A model generated the notes under the pieces. That model ran no database searches and had not been told where the DNA came from. It was given only the letters and a program-made list of their open reading frames with translations. The position numbers and the translations under genes are program-made. 64,000 nucleotides of DNA. Origin: a virus. Location: positions 64,001 to 128,000 of the IMG/VR virus record IMGVR_UViG_3300020048_000018. One strand, written 5' to 3'. Positions 3,625-32,498 of this stretch are shown one piece after another; the stretch's first letter is position 1, and each line of letters starts with the position of its first letter.

Positions 3625-4791
3625 ATGCAACACATAATTAAGTCTCTTATCGATAATGACCTTTATAAATTTAGCATGGCACAGGCAGTTCTTCATCAAT
3701 ATCCGGGTGCTTTGGTTGAATATTCCTTCAAGTGCCGAAACAAAGAACAGTTTTCAAAAAAGATGTTCAAGGAAATCCTAAAGGAGATTGACCATCTTTG
3801 TGCCTTGAAACTTACTCCAGAGGAACTTTCCTACCTTGGAACAATTAGATTCCTTAAAAAGGATTTTATTGATTTTCTCTCCCTATTGAAATTAAACCGT
3901 GACCACATTGTAATAACCCTTTCGGATGAAGGTCAACTCAGTATAAAGATTAAGGGTAGCTGGCTCCTCACCATCTTTTTCGAAATACCCGTCCTGTCAA
4001 TTGTCAATGAGGTCTATTTCAAAAATCTTGGAGTAAAACCAGACTATAAAGTGGCTATGGAACGTCTGTATGAAAAAATAGCCATAGCAAAAGTATCCAA
4101 GTTCAAGTTTTCTGAATTTGGAGGTAGGCGTCGATACAGCAGGGATTGGCAAGAACAGGTAATAGCAGAATTGGTTAAGCAGAAAGATGAAATTAATTTC
4201 ACTGGAACTTCCAATGTTTACTTTGCCATGAAGTTTGGTATTAAACCAATTGGTACAGTTGCTCATGAGTTTATTATGGCTCATCAACAACTCGGTCCAA
4301 GGCTCATTGATTCTCAAAGTGCCGCCCTTCAATCTTGGGTATCTGAATATCGTGGAGACAATGGTACCTTTCTTACGGACGTAATTTCCACTGACTCGTT
4401 CCTGAAAGACTTTGACCTGTATTTTGCAAAACTCTATGATGGACTTCGACATGATTCAGGAGACCCTATTGTATGGGCTAACAAATGTATCGCCCATTAT
4501 GAAAGCCTTAAAATAAACCCCATGACTAAGACCTTGATCTTCAGTGATGGTTTGGATTTCACCAAGGCTTCATATATCAATGAGGTATTAAAAGGACGAA
4601 TCAATGTAGCCATGGGAGTAGGAACGAACTTAACGAATGATTTTCCTGATATCAAAGCTCTTAATATTGTTCTCAAAATGACTGAGTGCAATGGGCGACC
4701 GGTGGCAAAGATTAGTGACACCCCGGGTAAGGGAATGTGCGAAAATCAAGACTTCATTGATTATCTTAAAAGCGTGTATGAATTAAAGTGA
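3625..4791 (+). CDS. pncB: Nicotinate phosphoribosyltransferase
   Basis: SLIDNDLYKFSM, SEFGGRRR, GTSNV, PIGTVAHE (phospho-His), GLRHDSGDP, FSDGLD, GVGTNLTND, VAKISDTPGK: PncB-type rather than NAMPT. Confidence 0.93.
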   Translation: MQHIIKSLIDNDLYKFSMAQAVLHQYPGALVEYSFKCRNKEQFSKKMFKEILKEIDHLCALKLTPEELSYLGTIRFLKKDFIDFLSLLKLNRDHIVITLSDEGQLSIKIKGSWLLTIFFEIPVLSIVNEVYFKNLGVKPDYKVAMERLYEKIAIAKVSKFKFSEFGGRRRYSRDWQEQVIAELVKQKDEINFTGTSNVYFAMKFGIKPIGTVAHEFIMAHQQLGPRLIDSQSAALQSWVSEYRGDNGTFLTDVISTDSFLKDFDLYFAKLYDGLRHDSGDPIVWANKCIAHYESLKINPMTKTLIFSDGLDFTKASYINEVLKGRINVAMGVGTNLTNDFPDIKALNIVLKMTECNGRPVAKISDTPGKGMCENQDFIDYLKSVYELK

Positions 4792-15374: not shown

Positions 15375-15446
15375 GTCCCGTTCGCCAAATGGTTAAGGCG
15401 GTGTTCTGCAAAAGCACTATCGTGAGTTCAATTCTCACACGGGACT
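15375..15446 (+). tRNA. trnC: tRNA-Cys (GCA), CCA not encoded
   Basis: Acceptor GTCCCGT/ACGGGAC; D arm GCC..TGG..GGC; anticodon stem GTGTT/AGCAC, loop CTGCAAA; T arm GTGAG-TTCAATT-CTCAC; discriminator U as expected for Cys. Confidence 0.93.
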
Positions 15447-15452
15447 CTTTAG

Positions 15453-18778: not shown

Positions 18779-18797
18779 TTTAACGCATTAATTTGAG

Positions 18798-18830
18798 AGC
18801 CTGTTACATTAATTTGTGACAGGCTTTTTT
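18798..18830 (+). terminator. Intrinsic terminator
   Basis: AGCCTGTTACA-TTAATT-TGTGACAGGCT then T run. Confidence 0.8.
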
Positions 18831-18835
18831 TATAT

Positions 18836-18880
18836 AAAGTTTTGAACTTTTCTTGAATATCCTATATATTATATATGTAA
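18836..18880 (+). promoter_or_regulatory. Class I repeated promoter heading the long + strand run that includes the pncA cluster
   Basis: AAAGTTTTGAACTTTTCTTGAATATCCTATATATTATATATGTAA. Confidence 0.8.
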
Positions 18881-19606: not shown

Positions 19607-20407
19607 ATGAAACTAGGTCTTTTTGTAATTGACCCACAGAATGATTTCTGTGATGCAAATGGTGCTTTGTTCGTCCCTGGTGCTGATCAGGATATGAAAA
19701 AGCTTTCCGGTCTGGTAAACCGTCTCGGGAGCAAGATCAAGAATATTTTTGTGACAATGGATTCACATCATGTTTTTGACATTGCTCACCCCACTTTCTG
19801 GGTAGGCAGGGATCTCAGTAATCCTCCGGTCTACACCATCATCTCGGAAGCAGATGTTTCCACAGGAATTTGGAGAGCATCAAACCCTTCCATGCAAAAG
19901 TGGGCTGAGGAATATGTGAAGGGTCTTTCTGTCAAAGGCAGATTTCCCCTCTGTATCTGGCCCGAACATTGCCTGATTGGAAGTTGGGGTAACAACATTT
20001 ATCCTGACCTCTACAATTCCCTTACCGCACTCGAAAAGAAGGGTGCTTTTGTGCAGTACCAGACAAAAGGCTCGAACTACAAAACGGAACACTATTCTGT
20101 TTTCGAAGCTGAATATCCTGACCCTTCGGATATGTCAACTCAGTTCAACAGCCTGTTCGCAAACGCAATCAACTCAAGCGACAAAGTTTTGATTGCAGGT
20201 GAGGCCCGAACCCATTGTGTTATCAACTCCCTTCGGAGTCTGATTGATTACATGGGAGAAGATTTCATCAAGAAGATGATCTTCATCGAAGATGCCAGTT
20301 CCAATGTAACTGTAATTCCCGCCCTGATTACTGCCGCAGACGATTACTTCGCTGAACTGGTACGTAAGGGCATGGAAGTCACCACGACCGATAAGTTTTT
20401 GGCATAA
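19607..20407 (+). CDS. pncA: Nicotinamidase / isochorismatase-family cysteine hydrolase
   Basis: VIDPQNDFC, GALFVPGA, VTMDSH, WPEHC, TKG, AGEARTHCV (Asp-Lys-Cys triad plus Asp/His/His metal ligands). Confidence 0.85.
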   Translation: MKLGLFVIDPQNDFCDANGALFVPGADQDMKKLSGLVNRLGSKIKNIFVTMDSHHVFDIAHPTFWVGRDLSNPPVYTIISEADVSTGIWRASNPSMQKWAEEYVKGLSVKGRFPLCIWPEHCLIGSWGNNIYPDLYNSLTALEKKGAFVQYQTKGSNYKTEHYSVFEAEYPDPSDMSTQFNSLFANAINSSDKVLIAGEARTHCVINSLRSLIDYMGEDFIKKMIFIEDASSNVTVIPALITAADDYFAELVRKGMEVTTTDKFLA

Positions 20408-20418
20408 GGAGAATTTCT

Positions 20419-21144
20419 ATGGATACAGAAAATGAAGTAATGAATATTCCCAACACCCCGTTCTCGTACAGTGCAGTAGCACCTGAGAATCTTGGAGAGC
20501 CTGAGTACACCCTTGTTTCGTTTATTCGTGACAAGAGTGGTTCGGTCAGTCCCTTCGATGATGAAATCTCGAAAGCCCTGAACATCTCTCTCGATGCTTG
20601 CAGGAAATCCCCTCGGTCGGAAAACCTCCTCGTTCGGGCAGGAGCCTTCAACGAAAGTTTGACGGAAATTCATGGATTCACGGAACTTTCCAAACTTCCT
20701 GACTATCGGGGATGTAACTGCAACGGAGGTACCTCCCTCTTTGATGCCGTGTATTCTGCACTCGGAGCGACAGTCGCCTATGCAAACAAACTCCGAAGCA
20801 TGGACTATAGCGTAAATGCTATCATCTTTATTACTACTGATGGTCAGGACAATTCCTCAACCTTTCGTGCTCAGGAAATCAAGACCCTTATTGATGACCT
20901 TATCCAGAAGGAAGAAATTGGTTCAATCACCACAGTTCTTATCGGAGTGAATGATCAGGGTAGTCTCAGTACCTACCTCACTGACTTCAAGAACGAAGCA
21001 GGATTGACCCAGTATGTTTCGCTCGGTGATGCCACCGCAGGAAAATTGGCCCGCCTTGGTGGATTTATCAGTAAATCCATTTCGAGTTCTTCGCAGAGCC
21101 TTGCAAGCGGAACAGTTGTTTCGGTTGCTGATCTTACTTTCTAA
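20419..21144 (+). CDS. vWA domain protein (TerY-like)
   Basis: MIDAS DKSGS, GGTSLFDAV, FITTDGQDNSS. Confidence 0.88.
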   Translation: MDTENEVMNIPNTPFSYSAVAPENLGEPEYTLVSFIRDKSGSVSPFDDEISKALNISLDACRKSPRSENLLVRAGAFNESLTEIHGFTELSKLPDYRGCNCNGGTSLFDAVYSALGATVAYANKLRSMDYSVNAIIFITTDGQDNSSTFRAQEIKTLIDDLIQKEEIGSITTVLIGVNDQGSLSTYLTDFKNEAGLTQYVSLGDATAGKLARLGGFISKSISSSSQSLASGTVVSVADLTF

Positions 21145-21153
21145 GGAATTAAA

Positions 21154-21510
21154 ATGAAAACAGTTACAGTCATTTCATGGAACGCATCGGGTTACGACTG
21201 GTCTTCAGAAGAGATTGTAGCTGTTTACATTAACGAGAAAAAAGCACTTGAAAGATGCAAGCTTCTAAATGAAGCAATAGACTTATATATTGAAGGGGAA
21301 CAAAAAGCCCATAATGAAAAAGCTATTTTCACGAAAGATATTGGTAAAAATAAACTTCTGTATGTAGAGCACTTTAAAAAAGAAACTGACAACTTTAATC
21401 TTAAGATTAATACTCTGAGAAAAGAGATTGACGAGATATCGGAAATAGACAACTTTTTTGAATACATCGAGGGATGTTTCAATACTGAGACTAAACCCTT
21501 TTTTGATTAA
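21154..21510 (+). CDS. Hypothetical protein
   Basis: ORF track. Confidence 0.55.
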   Translation: MKTVTVISWNASGYDWSSEEIVAVYINEKKALERCKLLNEAIDLYIEGEQKAHNEKAIFTKDIGKNKLLYVEHFKKETDNFNLKINTLRKEIDEISEIDNFFEYIEGCFNTETKPFFD

Positions 21511-21517
21511 GGAAAAA

Positions 21518-21862
21518 ATGAAAAAATTATCTGTAGATTTTGACTGTACCTTATTCTCTCTTAGTGAAAACTGGCCCGAAGTGGGAAAACAAAAATTAAT
21601 TCACAAGTTTGTTGCTTCTTACGTTCGGCGTAAAAAGAAACAAGGTTGGGTTATTATCTTGAATACAATGAGAGAATATAGTAAAGGTCTTGATATTGCG
21701 GTAGAAGCTTGCAAGGCACATAACATTCCCATTGATTATGTAAATGAAAATTACCCTCCTGACATAGAACGTTGGGGAGAGAGTAGGAAAATAGGTGCCA
21801 CCAGAAGTATCGATGATACCCAGATTGGTATTATTGGATGGGCATTGAGAACATTTTCATAA
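21518..21862 (+). CDS. Small HAD-superfamily phosphatase-like protein
   Basis: SVDFDCTL (DxD motif I), IILNTMR, IDYVNEN, SIDD; start moved from 21458 to ATG 21518. Confidence 0.7.
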   Translation: MKKLSVDFDCTLFSLSENWPEVGKQKLIHKFVASYVRRKKKQGWVIILNTMREYSKGLDIAVEACKAHNIPIDYVNENYPPDIERWGESRKIGATRSIDDTQIGIIGWALRTFS

Positions 21863-21877
21863 CAAGGGAAAACAAAG

Positions 21878-22720
21878 ATGATAAAGAATGTAGACAACTT
21901 TTTCTATATAGGAAAATCTCATACAGTCTGTGATGATTTCTCTCTCTCAAAATCTTGGGATTCCTCAGGAGAAACTATTACCCTTTCCATAGTTTCTGAT
22001 GGATGTTCAAACTCCAAGAACAGTGATATCGGTTCAAGGATGTTATGTTCTGACATCATGAGAGTTTGCTCAAAAGTACAAGAGAATTTTGAGAATTGTA
22101 AAAATACAATACTTTCAGGACTTAAGTTTATTTTTTATGACCTTATGGACAGATATGGGAACATTTATGGAGCAAGCTTTTTAGATTGCACACTCTTGAT
22201 TGCTCTCTCAAATAAAGATATTACAGAAGTGTTTGTATTCGGAGATGGTTCCCTTCTTGTGGATTACAGAGACCACAATTCTTATAGGGGTGGTATTGAG
22301 TTTTACAATTTTGAGTTTGAAAATAATGCTCCTCCCTATCAATCCTATAGGATGAATGAAGAAAGGGAAAGAAGATATTTGAAACTCGCTCCCACAATGA
22401 CAGTAGAAGTTTTTTCAGACATTAAGGAAAACTGTTCTGTAAGAGTACATGAACAAAATCTTCTGAGCGTAAAAACTTTTAAGTTTTTGCATGAGGATAT
22501 TTATAGGTTGATTCTATGCACAGATGGAGTTTCTTCTTTTAGTAATAAGGTAACAGGAGAAATTAAAAGCTTCAGTGATATAGGGAAAGAGCTTATAGCA
22601 ATTAAAAATGATACTGGGGTTTTTTTACAGAGAAGGGCAAAGCGTATCTTGGAAGACATGGGGAAAGAAAACTTTTTCAACCAAGATGATTTTTCTGCCT
22701 GTGCAATTTTGTATATATAA
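21878..22720 (+). CDS. PP2C-like protein phosphatase
   Basis: IGKSH..CDD, IVSDGCS..NSDIGS, FGDG, LCTDG, DDFS. Confidence 0.85.
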   Translation: MIKNVDNFFYIGKSHTVCDDFSLSKSWDSSGETITLSIVSDGCSNSKNSDIGSRMLCSDIMRVCSKVQENFENCKNTILSGLKFIFYDLMDRYGNIYGASFLDCTLLIALSNKDITEVFVFGDGSLLVDYRDHNSYRGGIEFYNFEFENNAPPYQSYRMNEERERRYLKLAPTMTVEVFSDIKENCSVRVHEQNLLSVKTFKFLHEDIYRLILCTDGVSSFSNKVTGEIKSFSDIGKELIAIKNDTGVFLQRRAKRILEDMGKENFFNQDDFSACAILYI

Positions 22721-22731
22721 GGAGAGCTGTT

Positions 22732-24438
22732 GTGAAAAAAGTTTTATGCAATGGAAAACAAGTAACTCTCCGTGATTCGGATTTTCTATCCTCTGGTGGA
22801 GAAGGGGAAATCTATAAGAAAGATGGACTCATATACAAAGTCTATATAAATAGAATTGATCAGAACAAAGAAAAGAAACTAAAGTTTCTTTCTATCCTAA
22901 GCAAAGACAATATCATTTCTCCTAAGGATATCCTGTACTCAGCCTCAAACGAGCCTGTTGGATATACAATGAATCTCGTGGACAACTCAAGTTCACTTGC
23001 ACTTTTATTCACCAACTCGTTTAAGAAAAGAAACAGTATTACTTCAACCCATCTTGAAAAAATATTTCTTAAGATGTCGGAGACCATAAAATATATCCAT
23101 GAAAAAGATATTATAATTGTGGATGGGAACGAATTAAATTACTTGATTTCAAACTCTGATTTCAGTACACCTTATTTTATAGACGTTGACAGCTACGAAA
23201 CTAAGGACTTTCCCGCTACGGTTATCATGCCCTCTATAAGAGATTTTTGTACTAAAGGGTTTTCAGAAAATACAGATTGGTATTCCTTTGCCATCTTGAT
23301 GTTTCAACTGTACGTTGGTATACATCCTTACAAAGGATATCATCCTAAGTACAATATCGTAAACTACAATGGGGTAGAAAAGAAAGTTGATAATTTAGAG
23401 GAACGATGCAAGAACAAAGTTTCTATATATAATTCAAGTGTTAAGTATCCTCCTTTTGTGGACTTGAATAATATTCCTTCAAACTTAAATGATTGGTTTA
23501 TTTCGATATTCGAGAAAGGTGAAAGAACTCCCCCACCAAATATTGTATCTGCTACATTGGCTATTGCTCCGAGGATGGTAATTAATTATAGCCAAGGTGT
23601 TGATCAGACTTTGCTCAATACTTACTCTGGAAATATTTCAAGGGTATTTTTTATCCGTGGTCAAATGTTGGTTATTACGGAGAATAACTATTACTACAAT
23701 AATCAGCAGTACAATAAAAAGTACCATAAGGAAGTACCTCTCATCGTTGAGGAAAAAGGTAACATTGCAATATATCATGTATCCAAAGGTCTTGACTGGC
23801 TTTTAGTACACAACAGAGACATGGACGAACAAAAGTTTGAGTTGCCTACTCTCCAGAAAGTTATGTATTCTAACAACCGGTTATTTGCTTTGACTGATGA
23901 TCAATTGCTTGAGCTTGAAATTAATCCTTATACACACAAACTTTCTACCAAGGAAAGCAGGAGTGTATTAGCAAATGCTTCCAAGTTCTTTATGAACTGT
24001 ATGTACTGTGACTCTTTTGGAAATGCGCTGTTCTATATTCCAGAAGTGAAAGAAGGGAATAATGTTCTTCATGTTATCAAGGTAACTCAGTTGAACTCTC
24101 ATAAAATAATTGATGCGTATTATGAGAACTCAACTCTTATTACTATCAGCAAGTTTAAGTCTGATTATTATAAAACTCTCACAAAGTTTGATGAACATTT
24201 TATTAAGAATGAATTTGTTCAAGAAACTTGTAATCTACAGGAAGTAAACGCAACTGTAATATCAAATGGTATGAGCTTGGTTATTGAAGAAGACACATTA
24301 GAAATAAGTGCAAAGTATAGTGTCAACAGAAAAAAGGTGAATGTCAATCTTGACATGCAATTATCCCATAAGGGAAATGAAGTTCTTGGATTCAGAAACA
24401 ATGAACTTTATTCTCTAAGTTTAAAGAAAGGAAACTAA
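22732..24438 (+). CDS. Ser/Thr kinase-like protein with beta-rich C-terminal domain
   Basis: GGEGEIY Gly loop, IYK, VDGNELNYLI catalytic loop, FIDVDSY, TDWYSFAILMFQLYVGIHPY. Confidence 0.85.
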   Translation: MKKVLCNGKQVTLRDSDFLSSGGEGEIYKKDGLIYKVYINRIDQNKEKKLKFLSILSKDNIISPKDILYSASNEPVGYTMNLVDNSSSLALLFTNSFKKRNSITSTHLEKIFLKMSETIKYIHEKDIIIVDGNELNYLISNSDFSTPYFIDVDSYETKDFPATVIMPSIRDFCTKGFSENTDWYSFAILMFQLYVGIHPYKGYHPKYNIVNYNGVEKKVDNLEERCKNKVSIYNSSVKYPPFVDLNNIPSNLNDWFISIFEKGERTPPPNIVSATLAIAPRMVINYSQGVDQTLLNTYSGNISRVFFIRGQMLVITENNYYYNNQQYNKKYHKEVPLIVEEKGNIAIYHVSKGLDWLLVHNRDMDEQKFELPTLQKVMYSNNRLFALTDDQLLELEINPYTHKLSTKESRSVLANASKFFMNCMYCDSFGNALFYIPEVKEGNNVLHVIKVTQLNSHKIIDAYYENSTLITISKFKSDYYKTLTKFDEHFIKNEFVQETCNLQEVNATVISNGMSLVIEEDTLEISAKYSVNRKKVNVNLDMQLSHKGNEVLGFRNNELYSLSLKKGN

Positions 24439-24439
24439 C

Positions 24440-24889
24440 ATGAAGCAATCAGAAAAGGCACAACAACTTAAAGACCTCATCACAAAAGAAACAGATAAAT
24501 ACTTGTCACATTGGACACCTGAGGAAATTAAGGAAAGATTATTAACAACACTTAATTCTGAGGTTTCATCCGTTATGACCAATGCGTTAGGCTTTGATAG
24601 CGATAGATGGTCTGGAAGACTTACTCTCAGAAGTTCATCACCTCTCTATGTGAAGGCTATGAAAATAGTGAATGACATAGCAGATAAATATGAATTCAAA
24701 GAACCTGAGTTCACTGACAAAGAAAAGGCACGATTCCAATCTGCTTACGATAGGGCTTATAAAAACACTTTGATAGACCTTGCAGAAGAACGTGCAAGAG
24801 GAGATGCCCAGAAGTTTTTTGATTCTATTTCAAGTACGATTGATTACTCTGAAGTTAAGAAATCTTCTCAGGACAACACCGATATTTGA
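24440..24889 (+). CDS. Hypothetical protein
   Basis: ORF track. Confidence 0.6.
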   Translation: MKQSEKAQQLKDLITKETDKYLSHWTPEEIKERLLTTLNSEVSSVMTNALGFDSDRWSGRLTLRSSSPLYVKAMKIVNDIADKYEFKEPEFTDKEKARFQSAYDRAYKNTLIDLAEERARGDAQKFFDSISSTIDYSEVKKSSQDNTDI

Positions 24890-25398: not shown

Positions 25399-26670
25399 AT
25401 GAAAACATACACAAATCTAACTCATGAAAACAATGCTCTGGTGAAATTTATTAACTCCAATTCAGACTGGCTTAAAATCCTGTCTGATGAAAGGGGTGTT
25501 TATGCTTTAAAAATTAAACAGTCAACTTGGAAAGGGGAAGAAAATCTTTGGATGTTTTCCTACAACCAAATTAAATCAAACTTCCGTTACCAAGAATGTT
25601 GTGTAGCCCGAGGTATCATTCTTGAAATTATCGATAACAAGGTAACTCAGATTGTTCGCCATGCATTTGATAAGTTTTTTAATTCTCAGGAAGGTTTGTC
25701 TGCAAAGATAGATTTCACTTCTCCCGATACTGTATCCTCAATGAAAATGGATGGCTCAATCATAGCCCTATATAATTATCAGGGTAGATGGAATTGGTCT
25801 ACCAATGGTATGTTCCATGCAGAAGATGCAACACTTTCTGATGTCCCTGCTTTTGCATTGGACGGAGCAGAAGACTCACAGACTTTCAACGACCTTATCC
25901 AGTATTGTGTAAAAAAACAAGGAATTGAGGAATCTTGGTTTCTTGATTGCTTTACCTATGTATTTGAACTTACCTCACCAAGAAATAGGATTGTAACTCC
26001 TTACCAAGATACAAAACTTACTCTTATCGGTATAAGAAATAATCTTACGGATGACGAAGTGGATGTGTTTACTTCTCCTCTTGCAACTTTAATACCTACC
26101 CCTGAAATTTTTAAGTTTGCTTCTCTTGAAGAAGCTCTTGAAAGTGCAGACAAACTTCCTGACCTACTTGAGGGATATGTTACACGAGGTAAGATGTTGG
26201 AAAATGGATCTTATGAAAGAAGTAAATCTAAATCTGCATCCTATATTAAAACTCACCATATCCGTGGAGAGAACAACTTCTCTAACAAGCAGTTGTTTGA
26301 AGTTGCTCAGGCTAATGAGACTGGGGAAGTAGAAGCATATTTCCCTGAGATTAAAGAAAAGATTGCGAAAGTATTGTCTTCTTTCAATACCCTGAAAGAA
26401 AGAGTTCTTGACGAAGTTAATATTGGTATGGTAAAATGGACTAGTCTCTGTAATGAAGACCCGCTTTACAAGTACTCTGATGTAAACGTAAAAAAGAAAT
26501 ACGAAACTTGGGTAAATAGTCCAGAGGTAGATGCAGGATACCGCTCGTTTATGTTCCTTATACATAAGGGTAATCCGGTTGCAATGTTAGACAATTATTT
26601 TAAGACAGTCAATTGGAAAGATTACAAGAATCTCCTTTTGAAAATTAACAAAGAGAATATGGAGGATTAA
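25399..26670 (+). CDS. RNA ligase, T4 Rnl1 (RnlA)-like
   Basis: ARGIILE, HAFDKFFN, SMKMDGS (motif I), TYVFELTSP.NRIV..Y, EGYV, KSKS..Y. Confidence 0.85.
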   Translation: MKTYTNLTHENNALVKFINSNSDWLKILSDERGVYALKIKQSTWKGEENLWMFSYNQIKSNFRYQECCVARGIILEIIDNKVTQIVRHAFDKFFNSQEGLSAKIDFTSPDTVSSMKMDGSIIALYNYQGRWNWSTNGMFHAEDATLSDVPAFALDGAEDSQTFNDLIQYCVKKQGIEESWFLDCFTYVFELTSPRNRIVTPYQDTKLTLIGIRNNLTDDEVDVFTSPLATLIPTPEIFKFASLEEALESADKLPDLLEGYVTRGKMLENGSYERSKSKSASYIKTHHIRGENNFSNKQLFEVAQANETGEVEAYFPEIKEKIAKVLSSFNTLKERVLDEVNIGMVKWTSLCNEDPLYKYSDVNVKKKYETWVNSPEVDAGYRSFMFLIHKGNPVAMLDNYFKTVNWKDYKNLLLKINKENMED

Positions 26671-26673
26671 TTT

Positions 26674-28572
26674 ATGGCAAATGAAGAAAGAATTGCAGAG
26701 CTTGTAAAAGATATTAAATTTTATCAAGACGATTATTACAATGGGGGACAAACAATCTCGGACTCCGATTTTGATGACCTCTGGAATGAACTCACAAAAC
26801 TTGACCCTAAAAACCCCATCTTGGGTGCGATAGGGTCAGACATGGAAGATGATGTTGAGGAAAGCTTCGATGGATTTGCAAAAGCAAAGCATATAATCCC
26901 AATGGGTTCTCAGCAAAAAGCCGCAAGTCCCGAGGAGTTTCTTACTTGGGGTAAAAAACATATCTATCCTGAGTACCTTGTCCAATTCAAATGTGATGGT
27001 GCTAGTTTAGAACTACAATATGAAAAAGGAATTCTACTTCGGGGTATTACCCGTGGAGACGGAAATTTTGGTGACGATATCACAGACAATGTTCGTAAGA
27101 TGAAAAATGTTGTTCTTAAACTTCCTGTACCTTTTACTGGGGGTATTCGTGGAGAAGTAATTATGGAGCATACTGTTCATAAAAACTTTTTTTCTGATAA
27201 AGCAAATTGTAGAAACGCCGCTGTAGGTCTTATGAAAAAGAAAGACGGAACAGGTTCAGAACATCTTAAAGTTATAACCTACGATGCAACTCCTACAGAC
27301 GGTAATTCCTACTTTATTACAGAGGAAGACAAAATCGAATGGCTCAAAGAAATGGGTTTCGAGATTGTAACTACAGTTATAGTGGAATCACTGGAAGAAG
27401 TAATTGATTATCGAGCACAAGTAATGTCTACTCGTCCTTCACTTGATTATGATATTGATGGTCTTGTTGTTAAGAACAACAGTATTGATCAGGCTGACCT
27501 TGCTAAACATCGTCCAGACAAACAGATTGCTTTTAAGTTCTCACTCGATGAAGCAGTAGCACCAATCCTCTCGGTTCGTTGGAGTGAGACCGGTGCTTCC
27601 TATACCCCAGTTGCACAGATTGAACCTACACAACTTTGTGGTACAACCGTTAGACAAGCAAACCTTTGTAATCCTAACATGATTACAAAAATGGATCTTA
27701 GAATTGGTTCACTCATTGTTATCACAAAACGTGGTGAGATTATTCCTAAGATTGAATCCCTTGTGGAAAATCCTGAAGGTTCAACACCAATTGAAATTCC
27801 TACGGAATGTTCTACCTGTGGTTCTAAACTTGTAAATGAAGGTACCCGATTGTATTGCCCGAACAGCACTTGCAGTAAAAAAGGTATTCATCAGATTATG
27901 AAATGGATAAAGACTCTTAAAATAAAAGAGTTTGGTACTGCTCTGGTAGATAGTCTCTACAGAGAAAAACTTATTACTTCCATTTATAGCTTGTATGTTT
28001 TGAAAACTTCTGACCTTGCAAACCTTGATCGTATGGGTGAAAAAAGTGCTTTGAAAGTATTGAAGAACCGAGATGCAATTAAATCAATTTCACTTCCTAA
28101 GTTTATTGCCGGATTTGACATTGAGGATATCGGACAGACTCTTGTAGAAAAACTTGAAGCAAGTGGATTTGATACTCTTGAAAAAATCTTAAAGATTAGA
28201 GTTTCTGAGATTTCTGACTTAAAGGGATTCAATACGATTACTGCTGAAAAGATTGTTAAGGGTCTTTCTGAAAATGCAGACCAGATGAGAAAACTTTCAA
28301 AAGATTTCATCACGATTGAACAGAAGTCCTTGCCAACAGATGGAGGAAAACTTAAGGGAATGTCCTTTGTATTCACCGGAGCACTTAATAATATTAAGAG
28401 AGCTGAAGCTGAAGATTTGGTTAAATCTTTGGGGGGTACAATTACGAGTGTTAATAAAAATTTATCGTTCCTTGTGACAAATGAATCCAGTAGTTCCGCA
28501 AAGTATCTAAAAGCATCTGAACTAGGTATTCCTGTCATTGATGAAGAAACTTTCTTAAATATGACAAGATAA
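26674..28572 (+). CDS. ligA: NAD-dependent DNA ligase
   Basis: YYNG...ISDSDFD.L, FKCDG, ITRGDG..GDDIT, IRGEV, IDGLVVK, AFKF, KRGEIIP, C..C Zn finger, HhH repeats, C-terminal BRCT (FVFTGAL). Confidence 0.95.
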   Translation: MANEERIAELVKDIKFYQDDYYNGGQTISDSDFDDLWNELTKLDPKNPILGAIGSDMEDDVEESFDGFAKAKHIIPMGSQQKAASPEEFLTWGKKHIYPEYLVQFKCDGASLELQYEKGILLRGITRGDGNFGDDITDNVRKMKNVVLKLPVPFTGGIRGEVIMEHTVHKNFFSDKANCRNAAVGLMKKKDGTGSEHLKVITYDATPTDGNSYFITEEDKIEWLKEMGFEIVTTVIVESLEEVIDYRAQVMSTRPSLDYDIDGLVVKNNSIDQADLAKHRPDKQIAFKFSLDEAVAPILSVRWSETGASYTPVAQIEPTQLCGTTVRQANLCNPNMITKMDLRIGSLIVITKRGEIIPKIESLVENPEGSTPIEIPTECSTCGSKLVNEGTRLYCPNSTCSKKGIHQIMKWIKTLKIKEFGTALVDSLYREKLITSIYSLYVLKTSDLANLDRMGEKSALKVLKNRDAIKSISLPKFIAGFDIEDIGQTLVEKLEASGFDTLEKILKIRVSEISDLKGFNTITAEKIVKGLSENADQMRKLSKDFITIEQKSLPTDGGKLKGMSFVFTGALNNIKRAEAEDLVKSLGGTITSVNKNLSFLVTNESSSSAKYLKASELGIPVIDEETFLNMTR

Positions 28573-31565: not shown

Positions 31566-32498
31566 ATGGCAAGTCAAATCTTAGAGAATGATTCAATGTT
31601 TTCAGCACACGGGATTCGCCCTTGGCATGGTCTTGGTACCGTAATTGATGATGCACCATCTTCTGAAGATGCAATTCGTATTGCAGGTCTTGACTGGAGC
31701 ATCGAACAAGTCCAGATTTATGCAGGAACCAAAGAAGTTGATGGCTACTTTGGAAACGTTCGCTCTGACACCAAAGAGTGTGTTGGAATCATCACCGATA
31801 AATACAAGATCGTCCAGAACTCCGAAGCTTTTTCTTTCGTGGATGATATCATGGCACAGAAAGACCTTCCCTGCAAGTACGAAACCGCAGGAAGTCTCTT
31901 TAACGGTCGCCGTGTTTGGATGTTGGTTGAAATGCCCACCCGAACACTTCTTGGAGATGAAGTAAAGAATTATCTTTGGGTATCCAATTCCCATGATGGT
32001 ACTTCCTCCATGAAAGCAGGTATCAGCCCCATCCGTGTTGTCTGCAACAATACCCTTACTGCCGCTCTCAATTCTTCACCCCGAGTCTGGTCTTTCCGTC
32101 ACATGGGTGATCTGGAAAACAGAAAACGGGAAGCTATGGAAACCCTCGGTCTTGCTACCGACTACCTCGATGAACTCGAATCTTTTGCCGAGATGATGGC
32201 TTCCAAAAAAGTCAACATCATCAAGTTCGTGGACAAACTTTTCCCTATCGACGAGGAAGCCACCGACCGCCAGATTTTTACCATCGAAGAAGAAAAACGG
32301 AAGATTATCAGTCTGTCCGAAGTTGCGAACATCTCCAACTTCAAGGGTACTGCTTGGGGTGCTTGGAATGCTGTTGCAGACCATATCTCCAACTCTGACC
32401 CGAAACGCAAAACTGACACCCTGCAACGTTCCAAGTTCGTGGACTTCATGGACGGTTCAAAACTTCTGGTTCGAGCACAGAAGATTCTTACCGCATAA
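31566..32498 (+). CDS. DUF932/DUF945-family phage/plasmid-like protein
   Basis: PWHGLGT, AGLDW, Y..VQN.EAF.F.D, YETAGSL.NGRRVW, NSHDG, PIRVVCNNTL, H.G, GT.WGA.NAV. Confidence 0.88.
   Translation: MASQILENDSMFSAHGIRPWHGLGTVIDDAPSSEDAIRIAGLDWSIEQVQIYAGTKEVDGYFGNVRSDTKECVGIITDKYKIVQNSEAFSFVDDIMAQKDLPCKYETAGSLFNGRRVWMLVEMPTRTLLGDEVKNYLWVSNSHDGTSSMKAGISPIRVVCNNTLTAALNSSPRVWSFRHMGDLENRKREAMETLGLATDYLDELESFAEMMASKKVNIIKFVDKLFPIDEEATDRQIFTIEEEKRKIISLSEVANISNFKGTAWGAWNAVADHISNSDPKRKTDTLQRSKFVDFMDGSKLLVRAQKILTA

Follow-up and report, generated by a model that had tools for sequence, protein, structure and literature searches.

A TerY-P-type signalling triad apparently dedicated to a nicotinamidase in a large phage and in its bacterial and viral relatives

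In TerY-P systems, a TerY-like vWA protein is joined by a PP2C phosphatase and by a Ser/Thr kinase with a fused zinc ribbon (Anantharaman, Iyer and Aravind 2012, via PMC11090510), and an output of this signalling triad has never been identified. In E. coli, the kinase YegI is active and autophosphorylating on Ser but has no known substrate (bioRxiv 10.1101/819920), and biochemical work is also available for the phosphatase PphC (bioRxiv 10.1101/303594). Here we analyse a module at positions 19607 to 24438 of a 64,000-nucleotide stretch of viral DNA (the window), which comprises bases 64001-128000 of the 178-kb IMG/VR virus record IMGVR_UViG_3300020048_000018. On the evidence of its sequences, the module appears to be a triad of the TerY-P type that is devoted to a nicotinamidase in the salvage of nicotinamide adenine dinucleotide (NAD+). 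It is widespread and apparently undescribed in the literature searched, as full-text searches for this gene combination found no description. The unit would tie the triad to one defined enzyme in the nicotinamide-to-NAD+ pathway, and the tie spans huge phages, bacteria of the Candidate Phyla Radiation (CPR) and several bacterial phyla.

Pathways of NAD+ salvage and reconstitution are known from both bacteria and phages. In bacteria, NrtR-controlled salvage operons of the type nrtR-pncA-pncB-nadD-nadE have been described (Rodionov et al. 2008, PMC2330246), and the same gene set (NrtR, PncA, PncB, NadD, NadE) surrounds the module in bacterial and CPR loci. However, the operon tables of PMC2330246 hold no kinase, phosphatase or vWA genes, whereas all three lie here between pncA and the rest. 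In phages, three NAD+ reconstitution pathways (NARPs) are set out in two reports, namely NARP1 (Adps and Namat), NARP2 (Nampt and Nmnat) and NARP3 (PnuC and NadR) (bioRxiv 10.1101/2024.02.11.579819; PMC13464706), and both pncB-nadD-nadE clusters and phage pncA have been reported for jumbo phages (PMC11662467). These systems resemble the present one in that NAD+ rebuilding is encoded by the phage, but none of the NARPs starts with PncA. Similarly, the NARP papers, the jumbo-phage NAD paper and the jumbo-phage reviews, the last two of which do report NAD genes, mention no kinase, phosphatase (PP2C included) or vWA partner, and NARP1-NARP3 are plain enzyme sets for which no regulator is described.

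A reading of the window made from its sequence alone had proposed six tightly spaced genes, and all six open reading frames (ORFs) are found on the plus strand at the coordinates that it gave, with gaps of 7-15 nt and with every motif that it named. Only four of them form a conserved unit: a long PncA-type nicotinamidase of 266 aa (19607..20407), a TerY/YegL-like vWA protein of 241 aa (20419..21144), a PP2C_2 Ser/Thr phosphatase of 280 aa (21878..22720), and a YegI-like Hanks-type Ser/Thr kinase with an all-beta, propeller-like domain (22732..24438). This core was delimited in a survey of 160 loci, 80 from bacterial or archaeal genomes and 80 on viral contigs, which were fetched by alignment-based scans and searched with the window proteins by tblastn, phmmer and family hidden Markov models (HMMs). 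The kinase, which belongs to a large family (more than 1,100 full-length matches among the matches listed), was present in all 160 loci, PP2C in 136, vWA in 124 and PncA in 119. Among the 113 loci with a complete set of the four genes, 107 keep the order PncA-vWA-PP2C-kinase on one strand; 43 of these 107 come from genome records of bacteria or archaea, and the other 64 are viral contigs. The association between the hydrolase and the triad, which the sequence-only reading had drawn from this single locus, is therefore upheld, with the nicotinamidase as an integral component, and the gene-neighbourhood survey that it had suggested finds the order conserved elsewhere. Units from genome records are compact: their median span is 4.3 kb, and their genes abut or overlap. 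On viral contigs, additional genes often separate vWA from PP2C or PP2C from the kinase.

The closest relative recovered (L165, from a second metagenome scan) shares 65% identity with the window in PncA, 55% in vWA, 52% in the kinase and 37% in PP2C, and its four genes stand together in compact form. Between the four families, pairwise distance matrices are correlated (Spearman 0.45-0.60, with 0 of 200 permutations reaching the observed value), so the four genes mostly travel together. The module had been taken as phage-borne, but it is not peculiar to phages, as it is also found on complete bacterial chromosomes (Capsulimonadaceae) and in CPR genomes of about 1 Mb; presence in such reduced genomes and on complete chromosomes fits a metabolic role. 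When viral and metagenome contigs were searched with a single sequence, that of the kinase or that of the vWA protein, no matches were obtained, whereas alignment-based scans gave matches. Against GenBank phages, blastn found no match, and tblastn returned only four uncultured, unannotated records and no cultured phage with the module.

The neighbours of the unit point to NAD+ salvage. All other ORFs of the 160 loci were clustered and representatives were scanned against Pfam, and the recurrent neighbours included NrtR (Nudix plus winged helix; 46 loci), PncB (nicotinate phosphoribosyltransferase; 41 loci), NadE (NAD synthetase; 21 loci), a NadD-like nucleotidyltransferase (13 loci), an ADP-ribosylglycohydrolase (9 loci) and the NAD-dependent DNA ligase LigA (9 loci, viral). 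At least one further NAD-pathway gene was found in 74 of the 160 loci, and it adjoined or lay inside the module in 48. Gammaproteobacteria typically show PncB-PncA-vWA-PP2C-kinase-NrtR, CPR bacteria typically show NrtR-PncA-vWA-PP2C-kinase-NadD-PncB-NadE, and some phages have PncA-vWA-PncB-NadE-PP2C-kinase or PncB-NadE-PP2C-NadD-kinase. The present phage encodes its own PncB, the next step of the pathway, 15 kb upstream of the module (3625..4791, plus strand; NAPRTase, 1.3e-82 at G000:68102-68785), a NadD-like protein in a 166-aa frame (CTP_transf_like, 5.5e-17), predicted to be a nicotinate mononucleotide adenylyltransferase, and NadE in a 648-aa frame (NAD_synthase, 3.6e-29), with all three matches above cut-off. 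Together with its PncA, the phage would therefore hold the whole nicotinamide-to-NAD+ route. No Nudix or NrtR gene of this phage was found in the 178 kb on record.

The first protein of the unit is assigned, from its conserved residues and profile matches, to a divergent, long PncA subfamily. The 266-aa protein gives weak matches to nicotinamidases in NCBIfam and the PDB, lacks a Pfam Isochorismatase match and falls below the NCBIfam cut-off (PRK11609, 34 bits vs 174). A profile of 25 family members, however, matches yeast Pnc1 (2h0r) with an E-value of 2.8e-11. The predicted catalytic residues D9, K154 and C204 are kept in at least 99% of 118 homologues, the metal ligands D52, H54 and H121 in 100% and C122 in 97%, and the WPEHC sequence provides the WPxHC motif. 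Likewise, G198 and A200 are invariant in the 118 sequences, and the GxAxxxC cis-peptide signature aligns with that of Pnc1.

As for the other three proteins, the interpretation of vWA, PP2C and kinase as a TerY-P triad proved sound, since they are true relatives of E. coli yegL-pphC-yegI and stand in the same gene order, although in this phage two inserts split vWA from PP2C. The window's vWA protein has no Pfam match (5 of 28 relatives do match Pfam VWA), and its family profile found no meaningful match among PDB sequences, but its AlphaFold2 model (pLDDT, predicted local distance difference test, 89.8) matches integrin I/VWA domains in Foldseek (E about 1e-8, probability 1.00). Its MIDAS (an adhesion site that depends on a metal ion) is complete (D38, S40, S42, T105 and D141) and reads DKSGS in this phage, and D38, S42, T105 and D141 are kept in at least 99% of 121 sequences. 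A Ser-rich C-terminal tail is conserved as well, with S218, S220, S222 and S225 kept in 94-99% of the 121 sequences; the model places this region in a helix followed by a low-confidence segment. Comparison of the vWA family with YegL by hhalign covers 172 columns, including the MIDAS and the Ser-rich tail, and gives moderate support (probability 52%, E 1.4e-4). The phosphatase matches PP2C_2 above the Pfam cut-off (E 4.6e-14) and PphC in BLASTP (5e-4), and the metal-binding Asp motifs D41-G42, D123-G124, D216-G217 and D270-D271 are conserved in the family alignment.

The kinase gene has a GTG start behind AGGAG. Its product falls below the Pfam cut-off for Pkinase, but the motifs GGEGEIY, VDGNELN and IDVDS are present, K36, D131, N136 and D151 are conserved, and residues 1-277 are modelled as a Hanks-kinase fold (PknB, Z 18.4, root-mean-square deviation 3.4, 233 residues aligned). 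The kinase family aligns with YegI over 238 columns (hhalign probability 97%, E 8.5e-11), with shared GGEG, IDxDS(Y/F)Q and HPY.G motifs. The extra beta-rich C-terminal domain noted in the sequence-only reading is supported by the model, in which residues 282-564 are predicted to be all-beta, with about 28 strands, and propeller-like. Foldseek aligns this region with the LRRK2 WD40 domain and with beta-propellers (Nup133 and Vps18); the label "beta-propeller" derives from these Foldseek rows from the whole-kinase model, as the rows of another whole-model fold search were filled by kinase domains, and an ESM Atlas search with the C-terminal domain returned no usable match.

Several features set the unit apart from the TerY-P systems described so far. 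The kinase tail in TerY-P is a zinc ribbon in the classic form or an OB-fold in the defence form, and YegI has two membrane helices C-terminally, whereas the model predicts a propeller-like domain of about 285 residues here. TerY-P comes without a nicotinamidase, while here a nicotinamidase is the fourth fixed gene and leads the unit; and the neighbours of TerY-P are ter genes or restriction systems, in place of which NAD salvage genes are found here. A useful parallel is provided by the ArnA-ArnB-ArnC/ArnD-PP2A network of Sulfolobus acidocaldarius, whose vWA protein, ArnB, has its MIDAS intact and serves as a conformational switch (PMC6509490, PMC12852372). ArnB carries its phosphosites at the C terminus; the Hanks-type kinase ArnC phosphorylates it there, and a phosphatase resets it (PMC6509490). 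Fold matches of the vWA model include the ArnAB structure 8s05. The Arn network differs in its partners, the FHA protein ArnA and a PP2A-type phosphatase, in its output, archaellum expression, and in having no nicotinamidase; as such, it offers a mechanistic analogy and not a family to which the present module belongs.

Depletion of NAD+ is a common anti-phage strategy. Taking the above together, we lean modestly towards the interpretation that the module is a phosphorylation-controlled switch of the first step of nicotinamide-to-NAD+ salvage, probably serving to rebuild NAD+ during infection. The propeller-like domain would be the likely sensor of a cue that NAD+ is being broken down or that infection is under way, upon which the kinase could phosphorylate a target and PP2C could reverse this. 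The conserved Ser-rich tail of vWA and the C-terminal phosphosites of ArnB lead us to propose that tail as the best candidate target. The phosphorylation state might then alter what vWA binds through its MIDAS and thereby gate the nicotinamidase in its activity, assembly or stability. Nicotinamide would be converted to nicotinate and passed to PncB, NadD and NadE along the Preiss-Handler route, which the phage also appears to encode, so that NAD+ could be rebuilt from nicotinamide freed by host NADase defences or by other NAD+ consumers, in parallel to NARP1-3. This would give TerY-P-type switches a concrete, testable output and suggests that NAD+ recycling is controlled at a further level that has not been studied. 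A more specific version is conceivable, although we regard it as doubtful: the module may be a dedicated sensor and switch by which phages activate a fourth kind of NAD+ reconstitution (PncA, PncB, NadD, NadE) once NAD+ is cleaved by host NADase immunity, with the propeller detecting a breakdown product or the immune effector and the phosphorylated vWA tail engaging a MIDAS to activate or scaffold the nicotinamidase. If true, direct gating of NAD+ salvage by protein phosphorylation would be seen for the first time in prokaryotes and their viruses, and a TerY-P-type triad would have an output assigned to it for the first time.

Some observations weigh against control of NAD+ salvage by the triad. 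About half of the loci have no other NAD gene within 8 kb, the PncB, NadD-like and NadE genes of this phage are scattered and not adjacent to the module, the kinase is retained by itself, or with no more than PP2C or NrtR, in a few relatives, and canonical TerY-P-like modules are reported to be anti-phage defences (Gao et al. 2020, via PMC11090510), which leaves a role in conflict conceivable. It could be that linkage involves no mechanistic coupling, with PncA an ordinary salvage enzyme and the triad a general phospho-signalling cassette for host takeover in phages or stress signalling in bacteria. This would suit a kinase whose substrate is not known, the relatives that hold the kinase without PncA or vWA, and the much faster divergence of kinase and PP2C (mean pairwise distances 0.65 and 0.71) than of PncA and vWA (0.48 and 0.55); in the loci with the kinase only, more sensitive family HMMs uncovered neither a hidden PncA gene nor a hidden vWA gene. 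Against it stand the gene order, which is fixed across many phyla and phages, with bacterial genes that overlap or nearly abut, the correlation between the four distance matrices, and the interleaving of NAD enzymes among the triad genes in several phages, and we judge such mere linkage unlikely. The sequence-only reading had raised host takeover, superinfection exclusion or competition between phages as possibilities, and these roles are less supported; because the recurrent neighbours are NAD-salvage genes, control of NAD+ recycling is preferred over takeover, exclusion or a toxin-antidote pair.

In line with the sequence-only reading, the unit could be a stand-alone, TerY-P-like conflict module whose triad responds to a rival phage or to a host factor and has the hydrolase as its effector, serving superinfection exclusion in phages or defence in bacteria. 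For example, nicotinamide could be destroyed so that rival phages are unable to rebuild NAD+ by nicotinamide-dependent routes, and both NARP1 and NARP2 require nicotinamide according to the reports on them. That all three triad parts are homologous to yegL-pphC-yegI and that TerY-P-like modules act as anti-phage defences (PMC11090510, citing Gao et al. 2020) would also be in keeping with such a role. We nevertheless consider it quite improbable, as the unit is accompanied by nicotinate-using salvage enzymes (PncB, NadD-like, NadE) and NrtR and not by other defence genes, occurs in minimal CPR genomes, and has its downstream pathway encoded by the phage itself. Moreover, PADLOC at E up to 10 returned only mad6 (3.9e-5, over 39 residues), PD-T4-6 (0.011) and a generic PP2C (0.03), with no model named TerY-P among the matches, the TerY-P content of the library not being verified. 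A last alternative concerns the enzyme, since the 266-aa hydrolase might act on another amide, such as a nicotinamide-containing nucleotide or signalling molecule, and the triad would then control that activity. The protein is some 60-80 residues longer than the solved PncA enzymes, with a stretch inserted at about residues 75-116 and an extended C terminus, and it scores under the Pfam and NCBIfam cut-offs. However, it keeps all catalytic and metal motifs of PncA, including WPxHC and GxAxxxC, it is linked to PncB, a user of nicotinate, and all 10 matches of the family profile in the PDB (E up to 0.01) belong to the nicotinamidase/cysteine-hydrolase superfamily (eight nicotinamidases or pyrazinamidases, one generic cysteine hydrolase and one alpha/beta-hydrolase-like protein). 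A different substrate thus seems very unlikely.

Variants of the unit were noted in several lineages. The propeller kinase stands without PncA, vWA and PP2C within 8 kb in L012 and L028 (Thiotrichaceae and Candidatus Venteria) as well as in L006, L011, L013, L015, L037 and L043; in two such kinase-only loci NrtR lies directly 3' of the kinase, and the link between kinase and NrtR can hence outlast the rest. In Pyrinomonadaceae and other Acidobacteria, a protein of about 740 aa with an N-terminal class I methyltransferase domain is encoded directly after the kinase (16 loci, including L014, L027, L038, L044, L047, L055, L056, L058-L060, L067, L075 and L077), and it may be a lineage-specific fifth component. 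The ADP-ribosylglycohydrolase lies between vWA and kinase in two Capsulimonas loci in which PP2C was not detected (PF03747, 2.9e-59; L062:1698-2771), and upstream of the module in other bacterial loci (L062 and eight other loci in all). A protein of about 370 aa, which has no Pfam match, is encoded between vWA and PP2C in seven loci (L009, L019, L090, L092, L103, L104 and L107; e.g., L103:5594-6703).

The remaining two of the six genes had been counted in the cluster by the sequence-only reading, but they turn out not to belong to the module. A 118-aa protein of no known function (21154..21510, plus strand) matches no family in Pfam, PHROGs, PADLOC or NCBIfam. A small HAD-type phosphatase (21518..21862, plus strand) has the DFDCT motif and matches the BT0820 family (1.9e-13, below the NCBIfam cut-off) and phrog_1238. 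The kinase stop is abutted by a gene for a 149-aa protein of no known function (24440..24889, plus strand), for which scans of the same libraries gave no family match. Homologues of these three genes were found in none of the 160 loci, and both the 118-aa gene and the HAD gene are absent from the closest relative, where vWA and PP2C are adjacent. By their distribution among the sequences surveyed, the two are inserts private to this phage. A role for the HAD insert as an ADP-ribose-1''-phosphate phosphatase extending NARP1 was considered and rejected, because the enzyme that extends NARP1 has a Macro domain. Inserts of other, unrelated kinds are frequent in viral relatives at the vWA/PP2C and PP2C/kinase junctions, which look like hot spots of gene insertion.

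The record comes from an aquatic metagenome, has a GC content of about 0.33 and, being 178 kb long at an estimated completeness of 69%, belongs to a large phage. Upstream of the module, a strong terminator-like hairpin with a 14-bp stem and a T run (18795..18828, plus strand) ends the preceding unit, and it is followed by a sigma-70-like promoter candidate, TTGAAC-17-TATATT (18842..18870, plus strand), recognised by its match to the consensus alone. This candidate is probably the start of a unit that runs via three small ORFs into the module, and no convincing terminator was found between it (18842) and 24889.

The content of G and C at third codon positions (GC3) differs among the core genes. 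The impression from the sequence that the first two genes are richer in C and G at these positions than their neighbours is borne out, with a GC3 of 0.48 for PncA and 0.46 for vWA, compared to 0.31 for PP2C, 0.34 for the kinase and a mean of 0.29 (standard deviation 0.075) for 50 long ORFs of the window. When each core gene was compared with its neighbouring genes over 106 complete loci, the mean excess was +0.10 for PncA (positive in 92% of loci), +0.09 for vWA (83%), +0.01 for PP2C (50%) and +0.04 for the kinase (72%). The excess is thus family-wide and does not have to indicate that this phage gained the genes recently, and recent horizontal acquisition is unnecessary as its cause; codon selection, expression level or slower divergence may be reflected instead. 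In this phage, the excess amounts to +0.19, about twice the family mean, and horizontal acquisition is still a possible contributor. A GC3 as high as that of PncA and vWA (0.47) is also seen in a 310-aa gene of no known function at 31566-32498 (phrog_1221, 3.5e-66).

Elsewhere in the window, a T4 Rnl1-type RNA ligase (PF09511, phrog_562) is followed directly by the NAD-dependent DNA ligase LigA, the pair spanning 25399-28572; LigA itself (26674..28572, plus strand), a consumer of NAD+, lies 2.2 kb downstream of the kinase. The sole tRNA gene of the window is a tRNA-Cys (GCA) at 15375-15447.

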